This document shows positions 3,102 to 56,749 of a DNA stretch of 64,000 nucleotides, piece after piece. The notes under the pieces were generated by a model. That model had not been told where the DNA came from and made no database searches. It was given only the letters and a program-made list of their open reading frames with translations. Numbering within the stretch: the first letter of the stretch is position 1; the number at the start of each line of letters is the position of its first letter. This stretch comes from an uncultured Verrucomicrobiae bacterium (GTDB taxonomy: Bacteria; Verrucomicrobiota; Verrucomicrobiia; Limisphaerales; UBA11358), in contig CAWHCL010000002.1 in assembly GCA_963827815.1 (NCBI GenBank), positions 37,749 through 101,748 of the forward strand. The letters run 5' to 3'. The position numbers were made by a program, and so were the translations under genes.

Positions 3102-3626
3102 ATGAAAAAAATAAACATCATAACTGCATTGACCCTGTTCGCGGGTTTCTGTGCCTTGGCAGACGAAGATTCAAATACTAATACCGTAATGGCCGCGCAG
3201 AATTCAATGAGCCGATCCATGGATGACATGACGGGAAAAGTGGGTGTCGGCATTACGCTTGGCGAACCCATTGGGGCGTCGGTAAAATATTTCTTTAACG
3301 ACACGATGGCCATTGACGGGGCAGCGGGCTGGTCCGCTCACGATCACAGCGGCCTGTATCTGCACAGTGATATCCTCTGGCATAACTATGATTTGCTGCC
3401 GGTCTCCAATGGCCGGCTACCGGTTTATTTCGGCGTCGGTGGGCTGTTCCGCGCCCGCGACCATGGCGAGGACAACCAAGTTGGCATCCGCGCGCCGGTG
3501 GGCATTTCGTATATGTTCGACAATGTGCCGGTGGACATTTTTGCGGAAATCGGGCCTGCCATTGATGTCTCACCGTCCATCCGTGGTGAAATCACCGGCG
3601 GCATCGGCGTGCGGTTCTGGTTCTAA
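3102..3626 (+). CDS. Small outer-membrane beta-barrel protein
   Basis: Signal peptide MKKINIITALTLFAGFCALA, an alternating hydrophobic beta-strand pattern, and a C-terminal GVRFWF ending in Phe. Confidence 0.75.
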   Translation: MKKINIITALTLFAGFCALADEDSNTNTVMAAQNSMSRSMDDMTGKVGVGITLGEPIGASVKYFFNDTMAIDGAAGWSAHDHSGLYLHSDILWHNYDLLPVSNGRLPVYFGVGGLFRARDHGEDNQVGIRAPVGISYMFDNVPVDIFAEIGPAIDVSPSIRGEITGGIGVRFWF

Positions 3627-10589: not shown

Positions 10590-10708
10590 GCATTTAATTA
10601 TGGCGTTGACCACCGTGCCATGAAATTGGGAGATGGAAGATGGGAGATGGAAGATGGCAAAAAATGCTGAAAAGCTGAAATCCTGAAAGCAGAAATGGAG
10701 ATGGGAGG
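10590..10708 (+). repeat. Composite repeat A: GCATTTAAT..CCGTGCCATGAAATTGG followed by a GGGAGATGGAAGAT purine microsatellite
   Basis: Shares GCATTTAAT and the 17-mer CCGTGCCATGAAATTGG with 12599-12717 in direct orientation. It continues as gggagatggaagatgggagatggaagatgg and ctgaaa-type repeats. Confidence 0.85.
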
Positions 10709-12602: not shown

Positions 12603-12717
12603 TTAATGACCGCCATTTCCGCCGTGCCATGAAATTGGAAGATGGGAGATGGAAGTTGGGAGATGGAAGATGGGAGTTGGGAGTTGGGAGTTGGGAGATG
12701 AGAGTTTGGAGTTGGGT
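12599..12717 (+). repeat. Composite repeat B: GCATTTAATGACCGCC..CCGTGCCATGAAATTGG plus GGAAGATGGGAGAT / TTGGGAG microsatellite
   Basis: Direct repeat of 10590-10708. Its first ~40 nt also resemble the 3' end of the Gly/His-rich gene (9415-9450). Contains (TTGGGAG)x4. Confidence 0.85.
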
Positions 12718-16459: not shown

Positions 16460-16570
16460 GGTAGAGCGCGTCACTTTCGCCTCTATTTTTACTTCGGCGC
16501 GACAAGCTGTACGCGCCATTCGGATTGCCGTCTGCAAAGACCGGCGGGCAGAGGACTGCCCCGCCCTACC
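16460..16570. repeat. GGTAG..CCTACC palindromic element, intergenic copy (subfamily 2)
   Basis: Ends are ggtagagcgcgtcactttcgcctc and ggcagaggactgccccgccctacc. The arms match the arms of the 56293-56368 element in swapped orientation. Internal hairpin ggcgggcag-agga-ctgccccgcc. The terminal CTA (16566-16568) is the TAG stop of the 16566..17366 gene. Confidence 0.8.
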
Positions 16571-17366
16571 TTTTAATCCCCACCTTGCCTGCCATGCCCT
16601 GAATCCGTTCTAATTGAACCGGGCGGCTTTTCACTTCATCAGCCCGGACTTTCCGGCGGTCATGGCCAGGATGCAGGGGGGCGCTGTCGCTTTTGCAGGA
16701 AATCAAATCAATCGTCGCCACCTCGGTGTCCGGCAGCGGATTGTCAATGGCAGTCACGGTAAAGCGCAAGGGATCATTTTTCCCAGGCGCGAACGTCCCG
16801 CCCTGCCAACCCACCTTGGAGCGTGCGGCGGTTGGCCCCCTGGCCGTCCGGCTGCGCTTGACGTTCCAGTCGAGGACATCCGCGCCATAGAGCACTTGAT
16901 TGGTCGCAGACGAACCGTCGGCATAATTGAACACCAGGTCGTAAACCGGCGTATTATTCGATGACGCGAAAAAAACGGCATGATAGACGTAGAGCGTCTG
17001 AAACTTCTGGTTCACGGCAATGTCCGTGTCGGATTCGGGGAGGGGCAATCCCCCTTTCGCGCTGCGGCCTCCCCAAAGGCAGATCAGTCCGTCCACATTG
17101 AAAGGCACATTATCATAGACCTGAAACCAGCGGGGCACCGACCGCCAAGCCAGCGTTTGTAGTGAATCAAACTGGTCCGCCGACGCCATGTATTTGTCGG
17201 ATATATCCACCGGCGTGACAATTTGTCTGGCAATGGCGCGTTCGCCACCGGCGAGGAGGAAATGCCGGGCAATGCGGTGCCGGCAGATAAACAGCGTGAC
17301 GACGACCGAGGCCAACAGCACCACGGTTCCCCAGGCAATCATCTTTTGGGTCTTTGTCCACGGCAT
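16566..17366 (-). CDS. Hypothetical membrane-anchored protein
   Basis: N-terminal TM helix IAWGTVVLLASVVVTLFI followed by a ~220-aa extracytoplasmic domain. No family recognised. Confidence 0.6.
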   Translation of the reverse strand: MPWTKTQKMIAWGTVVLLASVVVTLFICRHRIARHFLLAGGERAIARQIVTPVDISDKYMASADQFDSLQTLAWRSVPRWFQVYDNVPFNVDGLICLWGGRSAKGGLPLPESDTDIAVNQKFQTLYVYHAVFFASSNNTPVYDLVFNYADGSSATNQVLYGADVLDWNVKRSRTARGPTAARSKVGWQGGTFAPGKNDPLRFTVTAIDNPLPDTEVATIDLISCKSDSAPLHPGHDRRKVRADEVKSRPVQLERIQGMAGKVGIKR

Positions 17367-17616: not shown

Positions 17617-20600
17617 TTACTGAACACCGACCCGGTAGAAATAGGGTCCGGCGTTGGTTGCGGTCGTGTCCGTGTAGCTGGTCGTGCCGGCCTGACCGAC
17701 TATGTTACTTTGAATGGTCGTGAATGGCGGTTGCGCGGACAAATCGCCGCTGCCCTGGATGAAATAATTCACACCTTCCACACTTTGCCAACTGACGGTC
17801 ATGCCCGGTGAATTAGTGGCGGCAACCGGAACCAGCATTGCCAAAACGGATGCGGGGTCGGTGGGATTCAAGCCGGCAATCCATTTCTGCAGGTTGTTCA
17901 TGCCAGTGCCGTCTGTGTCCGCATAATCCGCCGAACCGTCGGTCGGCAGGCCGTATTGCTGCAACCATGCATAGGAAATGATTGAGGCGGGGGTTTGATA
18001 TTCATAGGCACCGATGTCCACCGTGCCGCCGACGATGCGCGGGTTGCCGTCGAGGTCGGTGGCGGCGGTAACGCAGGTATTGTCGCCGGAGTTGATGCAG
18101 GGGGAGTTGGTTTGAAGGTGGAAATCCCCGCCGGCCGGATTCACCAATGCCGGGTCGTTCGTGATATTCCAAAGGCCCGGCGGCAATGGCGTCGTGCAAG
18201 AATTGTTGAAAGAATATCCGTAAATGCCGAGGTAGTCGCCATAATTGGCCAGCGCGCCGCCGCCGTCAAAATTATCCTGAACGACGCTATTGAAGACGGC
18301 ACAGGCGGCGATGCCGCAGGGGTCCGCCCCGGAATTTCCGACCACCGTGCAATTCACCAGAGTAGAAAGGAGCGCACCGCCGCCACCATAACCGAATTGA
18401 TAAGCCGAGTTACCCACCACGACGCAATTGACCAGCAGGTTTTCCTCCGCGCCGCCGCCGCCCCCGGGAGCGAAGTTGCCGGTGATGAGGCAGTTGGTCG
18501 CGTTGCCGTGTCCCAAACCGCCACCATAATATCCCGAATTGTTTGTCACGAGGCAATTATTCAGCGTGGAGTAAACTGCGCCACCGTAATCGCCCGCCGC
18601 GTTGCCGTTCAAAGTGCATCCGTCGAGAGTGCATCCCTGCGCCCCGCCGCCGTAGTAAGAGACCGAATTGCCGGCGAGCAGACAATTCGTGAGAGTGCAA
18701 TTGTCCGCGCCGCCGCCGGAACTGCCTACCGTGGCGGTGGAGGCATTTGCGGAAATCACACAATCATTCAGGCTGCTGGATTCGGCCCCGCCGCCTTCCC
18801 AATATGCGGAATTTCCAGAAATCGTTGTGCCGGTTATGGTGGAATTATTCGCACCGCCGCCATAGCTTGCCGAGTTGGAAAGCACCCCGCAATTGTTGAG
18901 AACGCATTGATCGGCCCCGCCGCCGTAGTTCGCCGCCGAATTGCTGATGAAAGCGCAGTTGAAAAACCAACCGCCTGACGCGCCACCGCCCGAATCACTG
19001 GCAGAATTGCCGGTCAGCAGACAGTTCGATACGACGATGCCCGCCGCTTCGCAGAAAACACCGCCGCCTTCGCCTGCCGAATAACCGTTCGTCAAGGTGA
19101 ATCCGGCCAGTTGTGTGCCGCGGGCCAGATACACGCAACGCAACGCGCCACCGCCGTCAATCGCCGTCAGCGCGGAACCGTTGACGCTGTGCAACGTCAA
19201 CGGCTTGATCACCGTGACGCGGTTCGTGGTCGAGCCATCCACCGATTCCATGCCGGTTTGATAAACGCCATTGCTGACCAGAACCGTGCTGCCGGCAAAA
19301 GCCGCGTCCACCGCGTCCTGAATGTTCGTCGCGGCCGTATCCCACGAAAGGTAAGGCGCGACAGGGTTTGTGCCGGCGAGCGAAACAAAGTAATTCCCCG
19401 CGACGACTTGAACGACGCAAGTCGAGTTGATGCCTTCCGGGAAATCGTCATTAAACGCCGTGAACACGACCGCGTAATGCCCCGGTGACGCCCATGCGTG
19501 CGACACGGCCAATTGATTGCTCGCGACGATCCCGTCACCGAAGTCCCAGACACTGTAACTGGCGTGACCGATGATTTGCCCGTAGAAATTCACCGTGAAA
19601 CCAACGGCGACGTTTGTATAGTCAGCCTGAATGACAACATCCAACGGGCCGGTGACTGCACCTGCGTAGAATTCATCACAGCCAATGGACGGCGGATTGA
19701 GCCACGCCTGGCCGTCAATGTCCATGCCGGTCGAATATTGCGCGCTGCCGGCGCCAATGCAGGGCGAGTTGGAACTGATGTGGGCGGAATCGGTGAGTTG
19801 CGGGTTGCCGGTGATATTGTCCGCGCCGCTGCCGGGAAGCGGCGTGGTGCAGCAGAAATTCAATGTGCCGCCCGAGTAATTGGCACCGCCCGGCGCGGAA
19901 TTAAAATAAACGATGCAATTGTCCAATGCGCTGCTGTCCGCGCCGCCGCCGGTCGCCGCCGAGTTACCTGACAAGGTGCAATTGTTGAGGGTGCAATTTT
20001 CCGCACCTCCACCGTTCTGCGAAGCCGAATTGCCAACCAGCGCGCAGTTGTCCAGGGTTGAGCTTCCCGCGCCGCCACCGTAGGACGCCGAATTGCCGGT
20101 CAACGTGCAGTTAACCAGCGTACTCGAATCAGCCCCACCGCTGTAAGGCGCTGAATTGTCCGCAAGCGAGCAATTCGTCAGCATGCAATAATAGGCTCCG
20201 CCGCCGGTGTCACCTGAACCGTTGGCAAAGTTGTTGACGAACAGGCAACCATTCGCCGTGCTGTTGTAGATGCCACCGCCATAACCGGCCGAATTACCGG
20301 CGAGCACGCAATTGTTGAGTGTGTCACCGCCTGCCCCGCCGCCAACGAAGCTTGAACAGTTGGTCAAAACACAATTGTTCAAAGTTCCGCCGACCGCCCC
20401 GCCGCCGGTGTCGGAGGCGGAACAACCGCTGATGACACAATTGGAGACAACTGCCGCGGCTGATTCACAATATACCCCGCCGCCGCTGTAAAAATGGTCA
20501 TCCAAATTTTCGTATTGATCAATGAGTGTTCCCCCGCCGGCCAATGTGAATCCCGCCAGAGTCACACTGCCAGCCAGATAAACACAACGCACGGCGGCAT

Positions 20601-22800
20601 TGCCGGCGGGCGTATTCGTATCTTGATAACCCTGAATCACCGTCACCGACGGGCCATTGACGCTTTGCACCGTGATGGGTTTTGTAACGACGACGAGATT
20701 GGTTGGCGATCCATAAACCACCCGGCCGCCGCTTTGATAGACACCATCGGTGACCAGAACCGTTCCTCCCGGAACCGCCTCATCCACCGCATCCTGAATG
20801 TTTGTCGCCGCCGTGCTCCAGGTGAGGAAGGGAGCAACCGGATTGGTGCAAGCGGCATCAACATAGTAAACCTGTTGAGTCGTCACAGACACCATCACGG
20901 TTGCGCTGATTCCACCAGGATTGCTGTCGTTATAGGCAGTCAGCACAACCGGATAGCTGCCCGCAGTTGTCCAACTGTGCGAAACAGACAACTGATTACT
21001 CACCATCGTTCCATCGCCAAAATCCCAATAACTGTCCGCGGTTTTGCCATAAACCAGCCCGCCGAAATTCGCCGCAATGCCCGGCGCCACATTCGTGTAG
21101 TCCACTTGAATTGCCACGCTCAACGACCCGCTGGCGACGCCGGCATGATATTCGTCGCAGCCGATGGACGGCGGGTTAAGCCACGGGTCGCCGTCAATGT
21201 CCACGCCGGTTGAATAATTCGTGCTGCCAGCGCCAATGCAGGGTGAAGCGGCGCTGACATGGGCTGTGTCGGCCAATTGAGGATCGCCGGTGATATTGTT
21301 CGTGCCGCCGCCGGGAAGCGGCGTGGTGCAGCAGAAATTCAATGTGCCGTCCGAGTAATTTGCCCCGCCCGACGCGGAATTAAAATAAACGATGCAATTG
21401 TTCATTACACTCGAATCAGCCCCGCCGCCGCTGACGGTGACTGAATTGAAAACGAGCGTGCAGTTGTTGAGCGTGCAATTTTCAGCGGCGCCGCCATGGT
21501 ATAAAGCCGCGTTGCCCGCCAGCGCGCAATTGTTCAACGCGCTGGAATCAGCGCCGCCGCCATTCAACGCCGTATTGCCGGTCAACGTGCAGTTGTTGAG
21601 CGTGCAGCCTTCCGCGCCGCCGCCATTCAATCCGGCCGGATTGTTTGACAGCACGCAGTTGTTCAAGGTTGAGCCTCCTCCCGCGCCGCCACCGTAGAAC
21701 CCCGAATTGCCGGTCAACGTGCAGTCAACCAGCGTACTCGAATCAGCGCCACCGCTGTAATACGCCGTATTGCCACCAAGCGAGCAATTGGTGAGCGTGC
21801 AACCCGCTGCGCCGCCGCCCTGAAAGCCCGAATTGCCGGTCAGCGTGCAGTTGTTCAACGTGCAATAATATGCACCAGTGCCGGAGTTACCCGACACGAG
21901 ACAATTGTCCAACGTGCTATAGCTCGCGCCGCTGCTTGAGTTACCCGAAATGGCGCAGTTAGTGGCCGAGCCACCGCTCAGGCCGCCGCCACCTTCCAAC
22001 GCGTTGTTTACCGAAATGACGCAGTCGTTCAACGTGCAATCCAACGCGCCTCCGCCCTGGCTGCCGGCCAAGTTGCCGGAAAGCGTGCAACGGTTCAGCA
22101 GGCTCGATGATGCGCCGCCGCCGCCGTAACCGTCGCCAGTATTATTTGTGAGGATGCAATCGTTGAGCGTGCAAGTGTCCACGCCACCGCCCATGCCGCC
22201 GCCATAACCGGCGTAGTTGCCGTCCAGCGTGCAATGGTTCAGGATGCAGCCTTCGGCGCCGCCGCCGGTGCCGGCCGAATTGGCGGACAAGATGCAATTG
22301 TTCAATGTCGCCTGAAATGCGCCGCCGCCATCCACGGCCGTGCCACCGGTGACGATGCAGTTCGTCAAAATTGAGTTTGTGGATTCGCTAAACACGCCAC
22401 CACCGCTGTCTGAAGCCGTTCCATTGGTCAAAGTGAAGCCATCCATCGAGACCGTATTCGACAGGTAGAGGCAACGCAACGCGCCGCCGCCGTCAATCAC
22501 TGTCGCCTCGGGGCCGTTGACGCTTCGCACCGTGACGGCTTTGTTGATGACCACGCGATTGGTCAGCGAACCATAAACGGCACGACCGCCAGTCTGATAA
22601 ACTCCATCCGTCACAAGAATCAAATCGCCGTCACTGGACGCATCAACGGCGTCCTGAATATTCGTCGCGGCGGTGCTCCAACTGGCGTACGGTTGTGTGG
22701 GATTGGCGCTGTTCAAATCCACATACAACACCGCAGCCGGGGAAGAACAGGCAGCAAATCCACACAACACAATAGCCGGGAATATGGACCTTGGGTTCAT
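17617..22800 (-). CDS. Giant secreted parallel beta-helix (Pmp-like GGGA repeat) / PKD-domain protein, internally triplicated
   Basis: Signal peptide [23 protein letters not shown]. Dozens of xNCxLxGNSAxxGGGA repeats. PKD-like WDFGDGT..SHSW..G.Y.V.LTA.N occurs twice. There are three module starts: [11 protein letters not shown].., [11 protein letters not shown].., [11 protein letters not shown].. The C-terminal domain ends FYRVGVQ. Confidence 0.9.
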
Positions 22801-47445: not shown

Positions 47446-47626
47446 GCTGCTTGCTTTCTCGTGGGAACAACGCGGAAAGGCGATGTTGTGTGCCGAAAAT
47501 AGAATGTGGCTGAATTTAGCTCGATATGGACAATCCTGCAACCACGGAAATAAGTGGGTAGTAGGCGACGAGGTGACGAGTCGTTTGGGTCAGCACTCCT
47601 TACGTCGTGCCCTACAATCAAATAAC

Positions 47627-48757: not shown

Positions 48758-48764
48758 AATTTTT

Positions 48765-48842
48765 AATCCGCGAACTTCGCCAATTATCACGAATTACTTT
48801 TTATTTTTTTGATTGGCGCAAATTCGCGTAATTCGCGGATTC
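48765..48842. repeat. AATTCGCG-type long imperfect palindrome filling the trpA-manC-like intergenic gap
   Basis: aatccgcgaa (48765-48774) is the exact reverse complement of ttcgcggatt (48832-48841). Inner units are cgccaatt, cacgaatt / aaattcgcg, taattcgcg, around a T-rich centre. Confidence 0.8.
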
Positions 48843-49641
48843 AAATAGTCTTTACCGCGTCACCAAGCGATTTCACAAACGCGCCGACTTTGGTGACGAG
48901 TTCCGGCGATTTGCCATGTTCGGCAATCTGGTTCACCACCGCGCTGCCGACAACGCAACCGTCCGCTTCCGATACGACGGTCCTGGCCTGTGCCGGATTC
49001 GAGATGCCGAAGCCGACGGCGATGGGCAGATTCGTGTGCGCGCGGATTTTGGCGACCTGTGTGGCAAGGTTCGATGCGACGTTTTCCTGCATTCCCGTCA
49101 CGCCTTCGCGCGAAATGTAATAAATGAATCCGCTACCGCGCTTAACGATGAGTTCCATGCGGCTTTCCGGTGTTGTCGGCGCGACAAGGTAGATGTGGCA
49201 AAGCCCGGCTTTCTTCATCAACGCCTCGTAATTGTCGGATTCTTCCGGTGGCAAATCCAATACGAGCAAGCCGTCCACACCGGCCTTCGCGGCGTCGGCG
49301 ATGAATTGTTCCATTCCGGCGCGATGGATGAGATTGAAATATATGTAGAGTACGATGGGAATCTGTGATTGCTTGCGGACGACAGCAACCGTGTCCAAAA
49401 GCTTCGGCGGTGTGGTGCCGGATTCCAAACCGCGCTGCGCCGCAAGCTGATTGACCAAGCCATCTGCGAGCGGGTCGCTGAATGGCACGCCTAACTCCAG
49501 AATATCCACTCCGGCCTTGTCGAAAGCCAAAGCGAGGTCGTGTGTGGCGTCCAGATTCGGATCACCCGCGCCGATATAGACGATGAAACCTTTCTTGCGG
49601 TCGCGTTTCAGCACGGCGAACTTTTCAACAATGCGGTTCAT
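48841..49641 (-). CDS. trpA: Tryptophan synthase alpha chain
   Basis: GFIVYIGAGDP, LELGVPFSDPLADG, YISREGVTG and GFGIS are canonical TrpA motifs. Confidence 0.95.
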   Translation of the reverse strand: MNRIVEKFAVLKRDRKKGFIVYIGAGDPNLDATHDLALAFDKAGVDILELGVPFSDPLADGLVNQLAAQRGLESGTTPPKLLDTVAVVRKQSQIPIVLYIYFNLIHRAGMEQFIADAAKAGVDGLLVLDLPPEESDNYEALMKKAGLCHIYLVAPTTPESRMELIVKRGSGFIYYISREGVTGMQENVASNLATQVAKIRAHTNLPIAVGFGISNPAQARTVVSEADGCVVGSAVVNQIAEHGKSPELVTKVGAFVKSLGDAVKTI

Positions 49642-52285: not shown

Positions 52286-52431
52286 AGCTCCACCGCAGCT
52301 AGCCCAAGCCGGCACTAATCTTGATAGGAGTCGAGGTCATTAGACTCGTACCACCGTCTTGTAAAACGCCATTTTTCGCTGGCAAAAAGGGGCAGGGCCA
52401 GGTTTACTGGGCAAAAGTTGGCGATTCCTGA

Positions 52432-53061
<630 letters not shown>

Positions 53062-53064
53062 AAT

Positions 53065-53144
53065 GGATTGTTGGATGAATGGATTGTTGGATAAATGAAG
53101 GGCGTTTTGGCCAACAATCCAACAATCCGGCAATCCAGCAATCC
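53065..53144. repeat. GGATTGTTGG / CCAACAATCC inverted repeat (hairpin)
   Basis: ggattgttggatgaatggattgttgg faces ccaacaatccaacaatccggcaatccagcaatcc. The perfect 10-bp stem pairs 53081-53090 with 53111-53120. ATG 53095 of the DUF167 ORF lies in the loop. Confidence 0.85.
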
Positions 53145-53448
53145 GGGCCTTCCAACGCCGCTGCCAAATTTCCTCCGCGCGCACACCGACGGCACGCTTC
53201 TTTCCGTGAAACTCCAGCCGCGCGCTTCAAAGAATGAAATTGGCGGACCGATTGGCGATGAGCTGAAAATCAAAGTCACCGCGCCGCCCGTGGACGCGGC
53301 AGCGAACCAGGCATTGATTGAATTGCTCGCGGAAAAACTGGATTGCCCACACGGCCGGGTTGAATTGATTCGCGGCCAGACCTCGCGGCACAAGACCATC
53401 AAGCTACACGGCTTCACGCCGGAGGAAGTAATTCAAAAGATTTCGTAG
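53095..53448 (+). CDS. DUF167 (YggU-like) family protein
   Basis: LSVKLQPRASKNEIGG..LKIKVTAPPVDAAANQALIELLAEKL..VELIRGQTSRHKTIKL matches DUF167. The first ~16 codons are encoded by the hairpin repeat, so the start is uncertain. Confidence 0.8.
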   Translation: MKGVLANNPTIRQSSNPGLPTPLPNFLRAHTDGTLLSVKLQPRASKNEIGGPIGDELKIKVTAPPVDAAANQALIELLAEKLDCPHGRVELIRGQTSRHKTIKLHGFTPEEVIQKIS

Positions 53449-53564
53449 GGCAGGCGTCGCGCCTGTCTCCATTTTTAACCCGTCACCATGCCTCTGAGGC
53501 ATTTGGAAACCACGGTTTCCAGACGGAATCGAAAGTCAGAGACAGGCGCGACGCCTGTCCTACG
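53444..53564. repeat. GTAGG..CCTAC palindromic element, intergenic copy (subfamily 1)
   Basis: The 26-nt arms cgtagggcaggcgtcgcgcctgtctc (53444-53469) and gagacaggcgcgacgcctgtcctacg (53539-53564) match 25/26 as an inverted repeat. Each arm is itself a hairpin (gacaggcg-cga-cgcctgtc). The TAG at 53446-53448 is the DUF167 stop. Confidence 0.9.
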
Positions 53565-53613
53565 CAAAATACTTTGTCACCTCTTCGCGCTTTCCAGCCA
53601 CATAAGCGACGAT

Positions 53614-55234: not shown

Positions 55235-56749
55235 TCAACGAATTTTCTCGGTAAGCTCCTCCGCCGGGTAAGTCCAGATTTCCGCCAACGTCGGATGATA
55301 ATGCGGCGTGGCAGCAAGCTCACGGACGGTCATCCGCTTCGCCATTGCGGTGACGATTTCGTGGATGAGATCACCGCCGACCGGGCCGACGCATGCGCCG
55401 CCGAGGATTTCGCCGGATTTCGGATTAGCCAGCAGTTTCACGAAGCCGTCCTTCGCCTCCATGATGAGCGATTTGCCGTGGTCGTTGAATGGATAACTTG
55501 CCGCGAGAAATGGAATTTTGCGTGCTGTCGCCACCTTCTCGGTCAAACCGACGAACGCGACCTGTGGGTCGGTGAACACTACGGAAATCAACAGGCGATA
55601 ATCCATCGGGCGCGGTGATTTCGGTTTCACGATGTTATGAATTGCCGTTTCGCCCTGCTGGATCGCAATATGGACAATTTCATGAGGTCCGGTGCAGTCG
55701 CCCGCCGCGTAAATGTGTGGCGAGGTCGTCCGCATGAACTCGTTGGCGACAATCCTCCCCTGCTCCGTTTTCACGCCGGCGCTTTCCAAGGCCAATGACG
55801 CGGTGTTCGGCACGCGGCCCAGCGCGAACAGAATTTCCTCGGCGGAAACGGAAACGGTTTTGCCATTCTGCTCAAAGGAAATTGCCTTCATCGTAGGACA
55901 GGCTTCCAGCCTGTTCATTTTCCGCTTAAGCGGTTGTTTGGACAGTCTGGAAGCCTGTCCTACGATTCGCGCGTCCAAAAGTTTTGTGCCGGTGAAAACC
56001 TTGATACCTTCGCGCCGGAAAACCTTCTCGATTTCGGTTCCGGCATCGGAATCGAACTCCTTCAAAATATGCTCGCTGCGCTGGATGAGTGTGACTTTGA
56101 CGCCAAATCGGGTGAAGAATTGTGCAAACTCGCAGGCAATCGCGCCACCACCAAGGATGATGAGTGATTTTGGCAATCGCTTCAGCGCCAGTGCGTCGTC
56201 GCTGGTCATATAACCGACATCTCGGAGCTGCGGCAGCGGAGCTTGCGCAACGCTTGAACCGGTGGCAATGATAAAGTGTTTAGCCGTAAGCTGGTAGGAC
56301 GCGTCAGTCCTCTGCGCGCCGTCTTTTATCATTTTCCCTGCGGCGCGCACGGAGTGACGCGCCCTACCTGTTAATTCCACCGTGTGCGCGTCCAAAAATG
56401 TTGCATTGGCGCGGATGAACTTGAACTTCCCGGCGTTGAGCTGCTGGACGCGATAATCCGCAAAATCATTGATGAGCGCATTTTTCCGCGCCATGACCTT
56501 CTTGAAATCGAACCCAACTTTCCTTACATGGATGCCCCACGGTTCCGGATGGCCGGCCAGGTGCATCACTTCGGCGGCATAGAGCAACGCCTTCGTCGGC
56601 ATGCAGCCGCGAAGAATGCAGAGTCCACCGACTTCCTCACCGCCCTCGATGATAATGGTTTTCAATCCCGCGCCGGCCGCCGTTCGCGCCGCCGCATAAC
56701 CGCCGCTGCCGCCGCCGATGACGGCCACATCGAAATCAAATTTTTGCAT
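55235..56749 (-). CDS. FAD-dependent pyridine nucleotide-disulfide oxidoreductase (dihydrolipoyl dehydrogenase / mercuric-reductase-like, class I) carrying two in-frame palindromic insertions
   Basis: VIGGGSGGYAAA (FAD), redox CILRGCMPTK, ILGGGAIACEFA (NAD), YAAGDC, and a C-terminal HYHPTLAE dimerisation motif. The product is 504 aa, versus the ~450-460 aa usual for this family. Confidence 0.9.
   Translation of the reverse strand: MQKFDFDVAVIGGGSGGYAAARTAAGAGLKTIIIEGGEEVGGLCILRGCMPTKALLYAAEVMHLAGHPEPWGIHVRKVGFDFKKVMARKNALINDFADYRVQQLNAGKFKFIRANATFLDAHTVELTGRARHSVRAAGKMIKDGAQRTDASYQLTAKHFIIATGSSVAQAPLPQLRDVGYMTSDDALALKRLPKSLIILGGGAIACEFAQFFTRFGVKVTLIQRSEHILKEFDSDAGTEIEKVFRREGIKVFTGTKLLDARIVGQASRLSKQPLKRKMNRLEACPTMKAISFEQNGKTVSVSAEEILFALGRVPNTASLALESAGVKTEQGRIVANEFMRTTSPHIYAAGDCTGPHEIVHIAIQQGETAIHNIVKPKSPRPMDYRLLISVVFTDPQVAFVGLTEKVATARKIPFLAASYPFNDHGKSLIMEAKDGFVKLLANPKSGEILGGACVGPVGGDLIHEIVTAMAKRMTVRELAATPHYHPTLAEIWTYPAEELTEKIR
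55891..55965. repeat. GTAGG..CCTAC palindromic element inside a CDS (subfamily 1), exactly 75 nt
   Basis: The arms tcgtaggacaggcttccagcctgt (55891-55914) and acagtctggaagcctgtcctacga (55942-55965) match 23/24 as an inverted repeat. Inner palindrome ccgcttaagcgg. Translated in-frame as IVGQASRLSKQPLKRKMNRLEACPT. Confidence 0.9.
56293..56368. repeat. GGTAGG..CCTACC palindromic element inside a CDS (subfamily 2)
   Basis: The arms ggtaggacgcgtcagtcctctgcgcgccg (56293-56321) and cggcgcgcacggagtgacgcgccctacc (56341-56368) form an imperfect inverted repeat. Translated in-frame as GRARHSVRAAGKMIKDGAQRTDASY. Confidence 0.9.

Follow-up and report, generated by a model that had tools for sequence, protein, structure and literature searches.

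Rickettsia palindromic elements (RPEs) reportedly lie in-frame within functional genes, as Ogata and co-workers (in 2000) and Claverie and Ogata (in 2003) are said to have described. The initial annotation of the DNA analyzed here, a 64-kb stretch that we call the window, invoked this parallel for a palindrome embedded in a reductase gene, and as far as behavior goes the parallel is apt: like the RPEs, the window's element (family T1) is palindromic, in-frame and tolerated in a loop, and it has been proposed that RPEs supply the raw material from which new protein segments arise. Kinship, however, does not follow, as T1 is a doublet of GTAG-tagged REPs and therefore unrelated to the RPEs; the two have no sequence kinship, and the RPE hosts are obligate intracellular alphaproteobacteria whereas those of T1 are free-living soil/peat Verrucomicrobiota. 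Being GTAG-tagged, with its named matches in Verrucomicrobiota, T1 was not found to belong to RPE-1 to RPE-8; of these, RPE-4 and RPE-6 are CGTC-tagged according to Di Nocera et al. (2013, PMC3733652).

In-frame insertion of REPs is itself previously described. The report by Di Nocera, De Gregorio and Rocco (2013, BMC Genomics 14:522, PMC3733652) gives about 70 intragenic GTAG REPs in Opitutus terrae, with dimers that encode 20–30 aa. These resemble T1 in phylum, in consisting of a tag and a hairpin, usually as inverted dimers, and in lying in-frame in known genes, sometimes two per gene; the HrpA helicase is a REP host both there and in one of the stretches recovered in this study (L023). Since in-frame GTAG REP dimers were published in 2013, the window case belongs to a known kind, to which it adds T1 as a new member: the T1 sequence and the peptides GRARHSVRA and GAHGVTRPT are absent from the families listed there. 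The equivalent in this lineage that the initial annotation thought worth describing thus exists, but had already been published for O. terrae. The phrases "hot spot" and "same position" are absent from the paper, and neither recurrent colonization of one loop nor hyper-conservation of orthologous inserts is reported in its accessible part.

REP doublets are also known from REPIN-RAYT systems (Nunvar, 2010, PMC2817692; Bertels and Rainey, 2011, PMC3116915; Messing, 2012, PDB 4er8, PMC3479197; Ton-Hoang, 2012), which share with T1 the two inverted REPs with a spacer, the lack of target duplication, a single gene, here for a putative RAYT, with REPs on either side (in the related genomes L080 and L012, below) and a REP that is near-constant over long evolution. 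The REPINs of the described systems, which are from proteobacteria, lie essentially outside genes, whereas about one-fifth of the T1 matches listed lie inside a long ORF. In-frame MITEs (e.g., those of Coxiella burnetii, PMC5896051, and the cyanobacterial Nezha) are likewise small non-autonomous palindromes that can extend or interrupt ORFs in-frame; unlike T1 they derive from ISs and have terminal inverted repeats as well as target duplications, the latter absent in 42 T1 elements. The host gene and its first insert comprise the following features.

55235..56749, minus strand: host gene for a 504-aa, Lpd-like class I pyridine-nucleotide disulfide oxidoreductase
56293..56368: T1-family doublet (REPIN-like), 76 nt, made up of two GTAG-tagged REP units in inverted orientation
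56341..56368, minus strand: REP unit T1a, minus-strand sequence GGTAGGGCGCGTCACTCCGTGCGCGCCG
56322..56340: spacer between the REP units, 19 nt, encoding part of ..AGKMIKD..
56293..56321, plus strand: REP unit variant T1a', sequence GGTAGGACGCGTCAGTCCTCTGCGCGCCG

The palindrome at 56293–56368 is an inverted, REPIN-like doublet of GTAG-tagged REPs, with arms of 29 and 28 nt and the ends GGTAGG...CCTACC. Its sequence proved to be as quoted in the initial annotation, and it reads through in-frame within the 504-aa ORF 55235..56749(-), as TGRARHSVRAAGKMIKDGAQRTDASYQ, the minus-strand peptide of the doublet itself being GRARHSVRAAGKMIKDGAQRTDASY(Q). Both arms start G-GTAG-G, the tag being invariant among the 143 arm matches listed in our family search, and each REP unit contains a GC-rich imperfect palindrome. 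As read from the sequence, the GTAG tag of T1a is followed by G and by the unit's own hairpin, GGCGCG(T)CAC-TCC-GTGCGCGCC, while the corresponding palindrome of the partner type, T1b, is GGCGGGCAG-AGGA-CTGCCCGCC. T1a is the same 28-mer as a near-unchanged repeat of Verrucomicrobiota MAGs; the pairing of T1a' with T1a recurs in L050 and L072, and L023 and L090 have close relatives of T1a' (..CAGGGGACTGACGCGCCC..). The 64-kb window contains a single instance of the pattern GGTAGG-N40-70-CCTACC (0.01 expected from shuffles), and the minus-strand RNA folds at -51.4 kcal/mol against a shuffle mean of -27.1 (sd 2.9; z = -8.45), a stability reached by 0/200 shuffles. Rfam returned only sub-threshold matches to plant miRNA precursors, i.e., generic long hairpins. 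A repeat search of the window recovered 55890–55966 and 53441–53567 and missed this palindrome because its arms are bulged; the generic unit detector also overlooked the bulged T1a stem, and its census of single "GTAG plus hairpin" units in the window was uninformative, as the 6 matches fall within the 0–7 seen in shuffles.

The host protein has full-length Pfam Pyr_redox_2 (E = 2.7e-60) and Pyr_redox_dim (3e-29) domains. Its redox-active CILRGC and C-terminal HYHPTLAE motifs are intact, and the CxxxxC disulfide and C-terminal His-Glu dyad are present, C44, C49 and H485...E490 being invariant among 120 orthologues. With all catalytic motifs kept, the insert-bearing gene looks, from its sequence, like a working one. 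It scores 381.5 bits against TIGR01350 (the dihydrolipoyl dehydrogenase equivalog; cut-off 408.8) and has no 2-oxoacid dehydrogenase operon around it, and we therefore refer to it as Lpd-like. In Verrucomicrobiota MAGs such inserts lengthen proteins and depress HMM scores, the sub-cut-off Lpd score of this host being an example, and they may mislead annotation and alignment.

Relative to insert-free orthologues (460–463 aa) the host protein is indeed longer than usual, by ~43 aa rather than the ~50 first estimated: 22 residues at the T1 insert (site A) and 21 at a second insert (site B). The gap from HTVEL to LTAKHF, originally given as 34 residues, is in fact 27, against 5 (SNGKK or DNGKK) in insert-free orthologues. 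In the alignment to PDB 1ebd, the two inserts coincide exactly with gaps. Two AF2 models were of low confidence (mean pLDDT 45 and 59) and were used for strand and loop order only; in one of them the lowest-confidence segments are residues 130–149 and 265–284, flanked by strands 123–127/152–161 and 256–263/287–294, respectively. On the basis of the 1ebd alignment and this model, the T1 insert maps to a predicted hairpin turn between two beta strands of the FAD-domain beta-meander, consistent with a surface loop.

Comparison of orthologues bore out the proposal that the segment is a lineage-specific insertion. The 5-residue turn, with no insert, was found in orthologues at 60–74% identity and in some at ~80%, and among the 42 metagenome orthologues furthest from the window gene (L159–L200, 60–70% identity; the frameshifted L160 was excluded from the count) 36 have this turn rather than a non-palindromic segment of the same length as the insert. 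Both inserts are absent from P0106 and P0109, and the site-A insert from P0006 and P0022. Overall, site A is filled in 135 of 197 orthologues, by palindromes of nine or more unrelated families, and the site-B hairpin in another 22, with three families there; almost no inserts lie outside these two hairpins. The filled or empty state varies between orthologues that are 91–95% identical, and the turn-coding motif AAYGGNAAAA is common to both empty sites. Visibly decaying inserts occur in L142/L143, L146, L186 and L187, which fits the raw-material idea for palindromic repeats. The repeated colonization of one loop by different palindromes appears to be new.

The second insert of the host gene is as follows.

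55890..55966: in-frame REP doublet of the host gene (site B), family B, CGTAGGACAGGCTTCCAGNCTGT..., encoding IVGQASRLSKQPLKRKMNRLEACPT

Site B corresponds to the hairpin turn of the beta-meander in the NAD domain. A HMMER search with the insert-B peptide against 1.84 billion cluster representatives gave 0 matches, offering no sign that family B is a frequent in-frame insert in this reading frame, and sister copies of family B were recovered within two other ORFs by looser DNA matching. An alternative site-B insert of the orthologues (LVARASRPSESRGQDARAT) contains VARASRP, a peptide given for O. terrae GTAG-19 in PMC3733652.

To define the T1 family we searched with an 18-nt arm pattern. At least 120 stretches from Verrucomicrobiota MAGs contain the arm GGTAGGRCGCGTCASTCC, for the most part not within long ORFs, in agreement with the initial view of an interspersed repeat rather than ancestral coding sequence. 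Among the matches listed, the 10 nt after the pattern are near-invariant, an arm is paired with an inverted copy of itself or with a REP of a second type, single arms also occur, and several MAGs contribute 3–4 loci each. A count of copies inside and outside ORFs, as had been recommended, placed 27 of the 143 arm matches listed deep within ORFs of at least 350 aa and the other 116 not, and genuine Pfam domains were identified in 18 of 20 host ORFs tested (among them GlnRS/GluRS, PrpD, HrpA, MetH and Ser/Thr kinases). Complete elements are 57–122 nt long; 42 of them revealed neither a target-site duplication, flank matches of 2–5 nt being at chance level, nor a target consensus.

A candidate RAYT homolog, a protein of 155 aa, is encoded at L080:1318-1782, with T1 doublets on both sides of its gene, and L012, from a second related genome, has a copy 75% identical to it that is likewise bordered by such doublets. 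The L080 protein matched the NCBIfam model NF047646 "REP-associated tyrosine transposase" with E = 1.3e-18 over positions 7–142 of 146, at 67.3 bits, under the curated cut-off of 80; it had no match in Pfam and aligned to E. coli TnpA-REP (PDB 4er8) with E = 8e-6, including the HUH and Tyr motifs. Because there is no RAYT gene within the 64-kb window, we infer mobilization by a RAYT in the source genome from these relatives.

We consider it highly probable that the palindrome is a non-autonomous REP/REPIN element, copied in trans by a RAYT and tolerated in-frame in a hairpin turn of the reductase. The RAYT, a single-strand Y1/HUH transposase, would most likely copy T1-family elements in trans without target duplication, and one copy would have inserted into the beta-hairpin turn of the FAD-domain beta-meander. 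The insert would have preserved the frame, with no stop in the frame used, since the TAG of GTAG sits in another; as the loop is directed away from the conserved core, the gene could remain open, and the protein may merely bear 22 additional residues, probably disordered. An element of a different REP family would have done likewise in the NAD domain, at the corresponding hairpin. We infer, from sequence, that the insert is translated and is neutral for enzyme function. A point against a neutral passenger is that drift would be expected, yet the insert and its ortholog in L121 share 95% identity.

This conservation bears on whether the hairpin has been exapted and is under its own selection (candidate roles being protein binding, an effect on mRNA stability or on RNase III processing, or a translational pause that would let the two Rossmann-type domains fold co-translationally), or whether gene conversion from other copies, or homing, actively maintains its uniformity. 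The T1 element is identical to that of L121 at 72 of 76 positions, spacer included (17 of 19), against 61% identity at the gene's third codon positions. Insert B is identical to that of L122 at 78 of 81 positions, all three differences being non-synonymous, in genes with 78% of nucleotides and 59% of third positions identical, and the identity peak is restricted to the insert itself. Furthermore, B+ alleles have a common flanking signature, and the insert is a local mismatch peak in an ortholog pair otherwise 94% identical, which together suggest transfer by recombination; the P0002/P0037 pair has a mosaic pattern. That inserts are 95–96% identical where third positions of the orthologs are at ~60% seems to be new, although few pairs were compared and the metagenome assemblies might be chimeric. 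Against exaptation or conversion, numerous orthologs fare well without either insert, the inserts noted above (L142/L143, L146, L186 and L187) are decaying, and at least nine unrelated families at site A imply that no particular sequence is needed. On balance we regard exaptation or conversion as unlikely.

Other origins fare considerably worse. A conventional MITE, i.e., a deletion derivative of a DDE-transposase IS with terminal inverted repeats that moves by cut-and-paste, would share the long inverted termini and, at 57–122 nt, a size like that of many MITEs; however, the absence of target-site duplications in 42 elements largely rules it out, each arm has REP anatomy (a GTAG tag and its own hairpin), arms also occur singly or joined to a different REP type, and the gene between doublets encodes a probable RAYT homolog and no DDE transposase, making such an origin very improbable. 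An ordinary protein loop, ancestral or adaptive and only incidentally palindromic, might be expected to be in-frame, without stops and kept in several orthologs, as is observed, but it is scarcely credible for a 28-mer present at at least 120 unrelated and mostly non-coding places: other orthologs hold unrelated palindromes in the same loop, differences between orthologous inserts are non-synonymous and not synonymous, and the segment is missing from the outgroups, whose empty sites rule this reading out. It is equally far-fetched that a repeat-induced misassembly or binning error put the repeat into the gene. The window and all its relatives are metagenome-derived and the P0002/P0037 mosaic could be assembly chimerism; however, the same insert is found at the same codon and in the same frame in independent assemblies and samples (L121, L125, P0003, P0010, P0014, P0048 and others), and the frame and both flanks would not survive misassembly. 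An intein or intron was rejected as such domains are absent and the frame is kept, and a CRISPR or terminator because anatomy and context are wrong.

It is possible, if doubtful, that both hairpin turns are genuine insertion hot spots beyond being tolerant loops. This suggestion is based on the at least nine site-A and three site-B families, the turnover of states, and the 95–96% identity of inserts near synonymous saturation. If true, insertion may be targeted (e.g., to the AAYGGNAAAA motif or a resident palindrome), filled alleles may spread by recombination in a homing-like manner, or there may be selection for a nucleic-acid hairpin within the coding region; none of these three is described for REPs or REPINs. 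The locus is a clean and well-controlled case of selfish palindromic DNA joining a conserved enzyme, with empty, filled and decaying alleles that can be compared, and it supports the old proposal that palindromic repeats supply new loops to proteins. The ortholog series, with its many families in one loop, fast turnover and conserved inserts, is in effect a natural experiment on how REPs and REPINs choose targets, and also bears on whether they are kept up by conversion or selection.

Two further REP doublets in the window are intergenic.

53441..53567: intergenic REP doublet, sister family (CGTAGGRCAGGCGTCGCGCCTGTCTC), 69-nt spacer
16460..16570: intergenic, partly decayed T1a/T1b heterodimer, adjoining the stop codon of ORF 16566..17366(-)

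The element at 16460–16570 had been taken for an intergenic relative of the palindrome in the reductase gene. It is intergenic, but its kinship is partial: the left arm matches the T1 REP over its first 16 nt and is decayed beyond them, and the right arm is an intact REP of the partner type (CGGCGGGCAGAGGACTGCC(C)CGCCCTACC). The window has only two T1-type elements, one doublet and one decayed copy. At 53441–53567, the GTAG of the doublet provides the TAG that ends a plus-strand open frame (..EEVIQKIS*), upstream of an ECF-sigma-like gene.

The palindrome that the initial annotation described as embedded in-frame in a disulfide reductase gene is present in the sequence at 56293-56368, and the embedding is real, as it lies inside ORF 55235..56749(-) (504 aa) and reads there as TGRARHSVRAAGKMIKDGAQRTDASYQ. 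The pattern GGTAGG-N40-70-CCTACC has one match in the 64 kb against 0.01 expected, and on the transcript strand the palindrome folds into a single long hairpin of -51.4 kcal/mol, compared with a mean of -27.1 ± 2.9 for shuffled sequences (z = -8.45). The annotation's interpretation was also correct in kind, the element being a REP/REPIN-type insertion (a REPIN is two inverted REP units plus a spacer). The elements below, including those from a repeat search, all start (C/G)GTAGG and finish CCTAC(G/C):

56293-56368, in 55235..56749(-): site A insert, of the REP family termed T1
55890-55966, in 55235..56749(-): in-frame palindromic REP doublet of family B, at site B, encoding IVGQASRLSKQPLKRKMNRLEACPT; exact arms found in the reductase gene only
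53441-53567, intergenic: sister REP doublet

The GTAG of the intergenic doublet provides the TAG that terminates a plus-strand open frame (end ..EEVIQKIS / ..HGFTPEEVIQKIS), and its 69-nt spacer holds two more small palindromes, ATGCCTCTGAGGCAT and GGAAACCACGGTTTCC. The related copy proposed at 16460-16570 holds up in part: its right arm, of the partner type, is intact, and only 16 nt of the left arm are kept, the remainder of that arm having decayed.

In the host protein, Pfam identifies both Pyr_redox_2 and Pyr_redox_dim at full length; the closest solved structure (E = 1.8e-68) is that of a dihydrolipoamide dehydrogenase, 1ebd, and the catalytic residues are invariant across orthologues. 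We refer to the protein as Lpd-like because its TIGR01350 score of 381.5 is under the 408.8 cut-off. Gaps in the 1ebd alignment fall exactly at the site A segment and at site B. The AF2 model from a deeper alignment was weak (mean pLDDT 58.8); its least confident segments, residues 130-149 and 265-284, are flanked by predicted strand pairs (123-127/152-161 and 256-263/287-294), a modeled placement that agrees with the alignment gaps. Given what we know of the glutathione-reductase fold, we take sites A and B to be hairpin turns of beta-meanders in the FAD and NAD domains, respectively.

The closest 120 proteins (73-82% identity, 463-537 aa) are from Verrucomicrobiota wherever named, and two of 463 aa (P0106 and P0109) are without both inserts, reading ...HTVEWSNGKKLTARHF... 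and ...DAKRSGKLKTVAF... at the sites; the window's protein has a net gain of 22 aa from the site A insert and 21 aa from the site B insert. Among 80 metagenomic orthologue loci retrieved, the 42 with the lowest identity (60-70%; L159-L200, leaving out frameshifted L160) include 36 with short turns. From these comparisons, the insert is the derived state. The frameshift in L160 (2285-3741), near codon 79 and distant from the insert sites, means that this orthologue is a pseudogene, unless a sequencing error caused it.

When inserts of at least 8 aa were counted in 197 non-identical orthologues, 135 had one at site A, 22 at site B, six in a third loop after residues ~373-379, and one at any other position (N-terminal, 8 aa). 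At least nine unrelated families are represented among the site A inserts, and each is palindromic at the DNA level:

Insert families at site A (sequence or locus; folding energy)
T1: window element 56293-56368
T2: TGTAGCGTTCGGCC...GCTACA; -38 to -50 kcal/mol
T3: CCCTCTCCCC...GGGGAGAGGG
T4: GGTAGGGCCGACC...GCGTCCCTACC
T5: CGTAGCAGCCGACG...; -57 kcal/mol
T6: L201; -63 kcal/mol, z = -9.6
T7: L203; -33.7 kcal/mol, z = -4.4
T8: L165; -67.5 kcal/mol
T9: L202; -57.9 kcal/mol, z = -2.9, the weakest of these families

Site B holds three GTAG-tagged families, one of which, in orthologue P0080, folds at -76.6 kcal/mol. Insert state differs even between very close orthologues, as in P0017 (T5) and P0033 (T7) at 94.6% aa identity, P0086 (T5) and P0087 (T2) at 94.1%, and P0041 (T4) and P0106 (empty) at 91.3%. 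Insert types are scattered on a neighbour-joining tree, and decaying inserts occur in L142/143, L146, L186, and L187. Empty sites A and B both have an N-G-K turn (motif AAYGGNAAAA, a possible insertion target), the ancestral turn codons being largely lost in filled alleles. This recurrent colonisation of one loop, a hot spot, seems to be new.

A REP unit of this type consists of a GTAG tag, a G, and its own hairpin, and two inverted GTAG units form a REPIN-like doublet with a spacer of a few to ~70 nt. The arm pattern GGTAGGRCGCGTCASTCC had matches in at least 120 stretches from species-representative genomes. Among the matches listed, nearly all carry a Verrucomicrobiota name (Limisphaerales, subdivision 3, Udaeobacter, Terrimicrobiaceae) and the 28-mer GGTAGGGCGCGTCACTCCGTGCGCGCCG, to which the window's minus-strand arm is identical, is almost invariant; its partner arm is a second unit, CGGCGGGCAGAGGACTGCCCGCCCTACC, or the 28-mer unit itself inverted. 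This 28-nt REP (T1a) is virtually identical in over 100 species-level MAGs that span several orders of Verrucomicrobiota (L001-L120), a conservation that is unusually broad for a REP sequence; a few of these records bear implausible organism names (Bifidobacterium, Klebsiella) and are probably mislabelled bins. Neither a target-site duplication nor a target consensus was found around T1-type elements.

One stretch, L080, has a 155-aa ORF flanked on both sides by T1-type doublets, which matches the NCBIfam model "REP-associated tyrosine transposase" (RAYT) nearly full length (E = 1.3e-18; 67 bits, below the cut-off of 80) and also E. coli TnpA-REP (4er8), in an alignment that matches up the HUH and Tyr motifs; a homologue at 75% identity occurs in L012. 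No RAYT gene occurs within the 64-kb window. The element entered the gene by REP/REPIN insertion at permissive hairpin turns of the reductase, and, judging from the relatives' genomes, a RAYT would mobilise it.

The reductase is one of several genes with such inserts: 27 of the 143 arm matches listed fall inside open frames of 350 aa or longer, at a depth of 80 codons or more, and bona fide Pfam domains were found in 18 of 20 tested ORFs holding arms. T1-bearing ORFs include GlnRS/GluRS, PrpD, HrpA helicase, MoaE-MoeA, MetH, DNA methylases, peptidase U32, a radical-SAM enzyme, and GH77. In each of two paralogous Ser/Thr kinases, a T1 doublet falls within the activation segment, after DFG and before APE; the two ORFs are adjacent (L108:1-2355(-) and L108:3201-7568(-); ..DFGLAK..EGRARHSVRAEHAQNEDGVTRPTSE..GTPQYMAPE). 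A further reductase orthologue, L017, has the site A T1 unit in the opposite orientation (peptide GAHGVTRPT). A T1 unit plus a family-B-like doublet occur in a peptidase U32 ORF (L105:7088-7160) and in a DUF5107/TPR ORF (L115:~3400-3481), from which it is clear that several palindromic inserts in one gene recur. Di Nocera et al. (2013; PMC3733652) described GTAG REPs inside genes, most numerous in Opitutus terrae, with intragenic dimers encoding 20-30 aa, at times two in one gene. In-frame REP insertion is thus already published, and the window element is not categorically new because in-gene GTAG REP dimers had been reported. HrpA is a host gene in that study as well as for T1, and the alternative site B insert of some orthologues (LVARASRP...DARAT) includes VARASRP, a GTAG-19 peptide there; the T1 peptides, however, are missing from its tables.

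The inserts are conserved beyond the genes that carry them. Between the window and L121, the T1 element is identical at 72/76 positions (95%), spacer included, against 80% for gene nucleotides and 61% for third positions; for insert B, the values for the window and L122 are 78/81 (96%), 78%, and 59%, and the three differences are all non-synonymous. For insert B, the identity peak is limited to the insert itself. L125, by contrast, shares the arms of the window T1 with an unrelated spacer. P0002, with insert B, and P0037, without it (L206 and L207), show no difference in their first 675 nt, T6 insert included, then diverge by ~10%, with mismatches peaking beside insert B, until the last ~100 nt, which are identical again; the mosaic stems from natural recombination or else from chimeric metagenome assembly. 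Alleles with insert B share the flank signature M/I-K-x-I-S, vs. L-K-T-V-S, and site flanks among empty alleles vary at only 1.2-1.4 times the gene mean. The pattern points to a spread of filled haplotypes by recombination, or to assembly chimerism, and to palindromes additionally kept uniform by conversion or selection. Insert conservation beyond expectation seems to be new, and it is in this hyper-conservation and in the hot-spot turnover that the value of follow-up lies.

Other repeats were observed in the window. Its plus strand has 36 copies of GTAGG vs. 20 of the complement, CCTAC. Imperfect palindromes lie in short intergenic gaps at 47561-47615 and 48761-48845; the former has GTAGG...CCTAC ends and arm complementarity of just 17/27, and is possibly a decayed REP. 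At 53061-53146, two arrays, one of the 16-nt unit AAATGGATTGTTGGAT and one of its complement, face each other head to head as an imperfect inverted repeat that lies close to the 5' end of ORF 52315..53184(-) and could be a regulator binding site. A tandem array of the heptamer TTGGGAG (x 11.7) lies at 12635-12716, with a related 14-mer, TGGGAGATGGAAGA (x 2.2), at 10627-10657. Finally, a degenerate tandem repeat at 21457-21864 (63-nt unit, x 6.3), within the 1727-aa ORF 17617..22800(-), probably encodes a repetitive protein domain.
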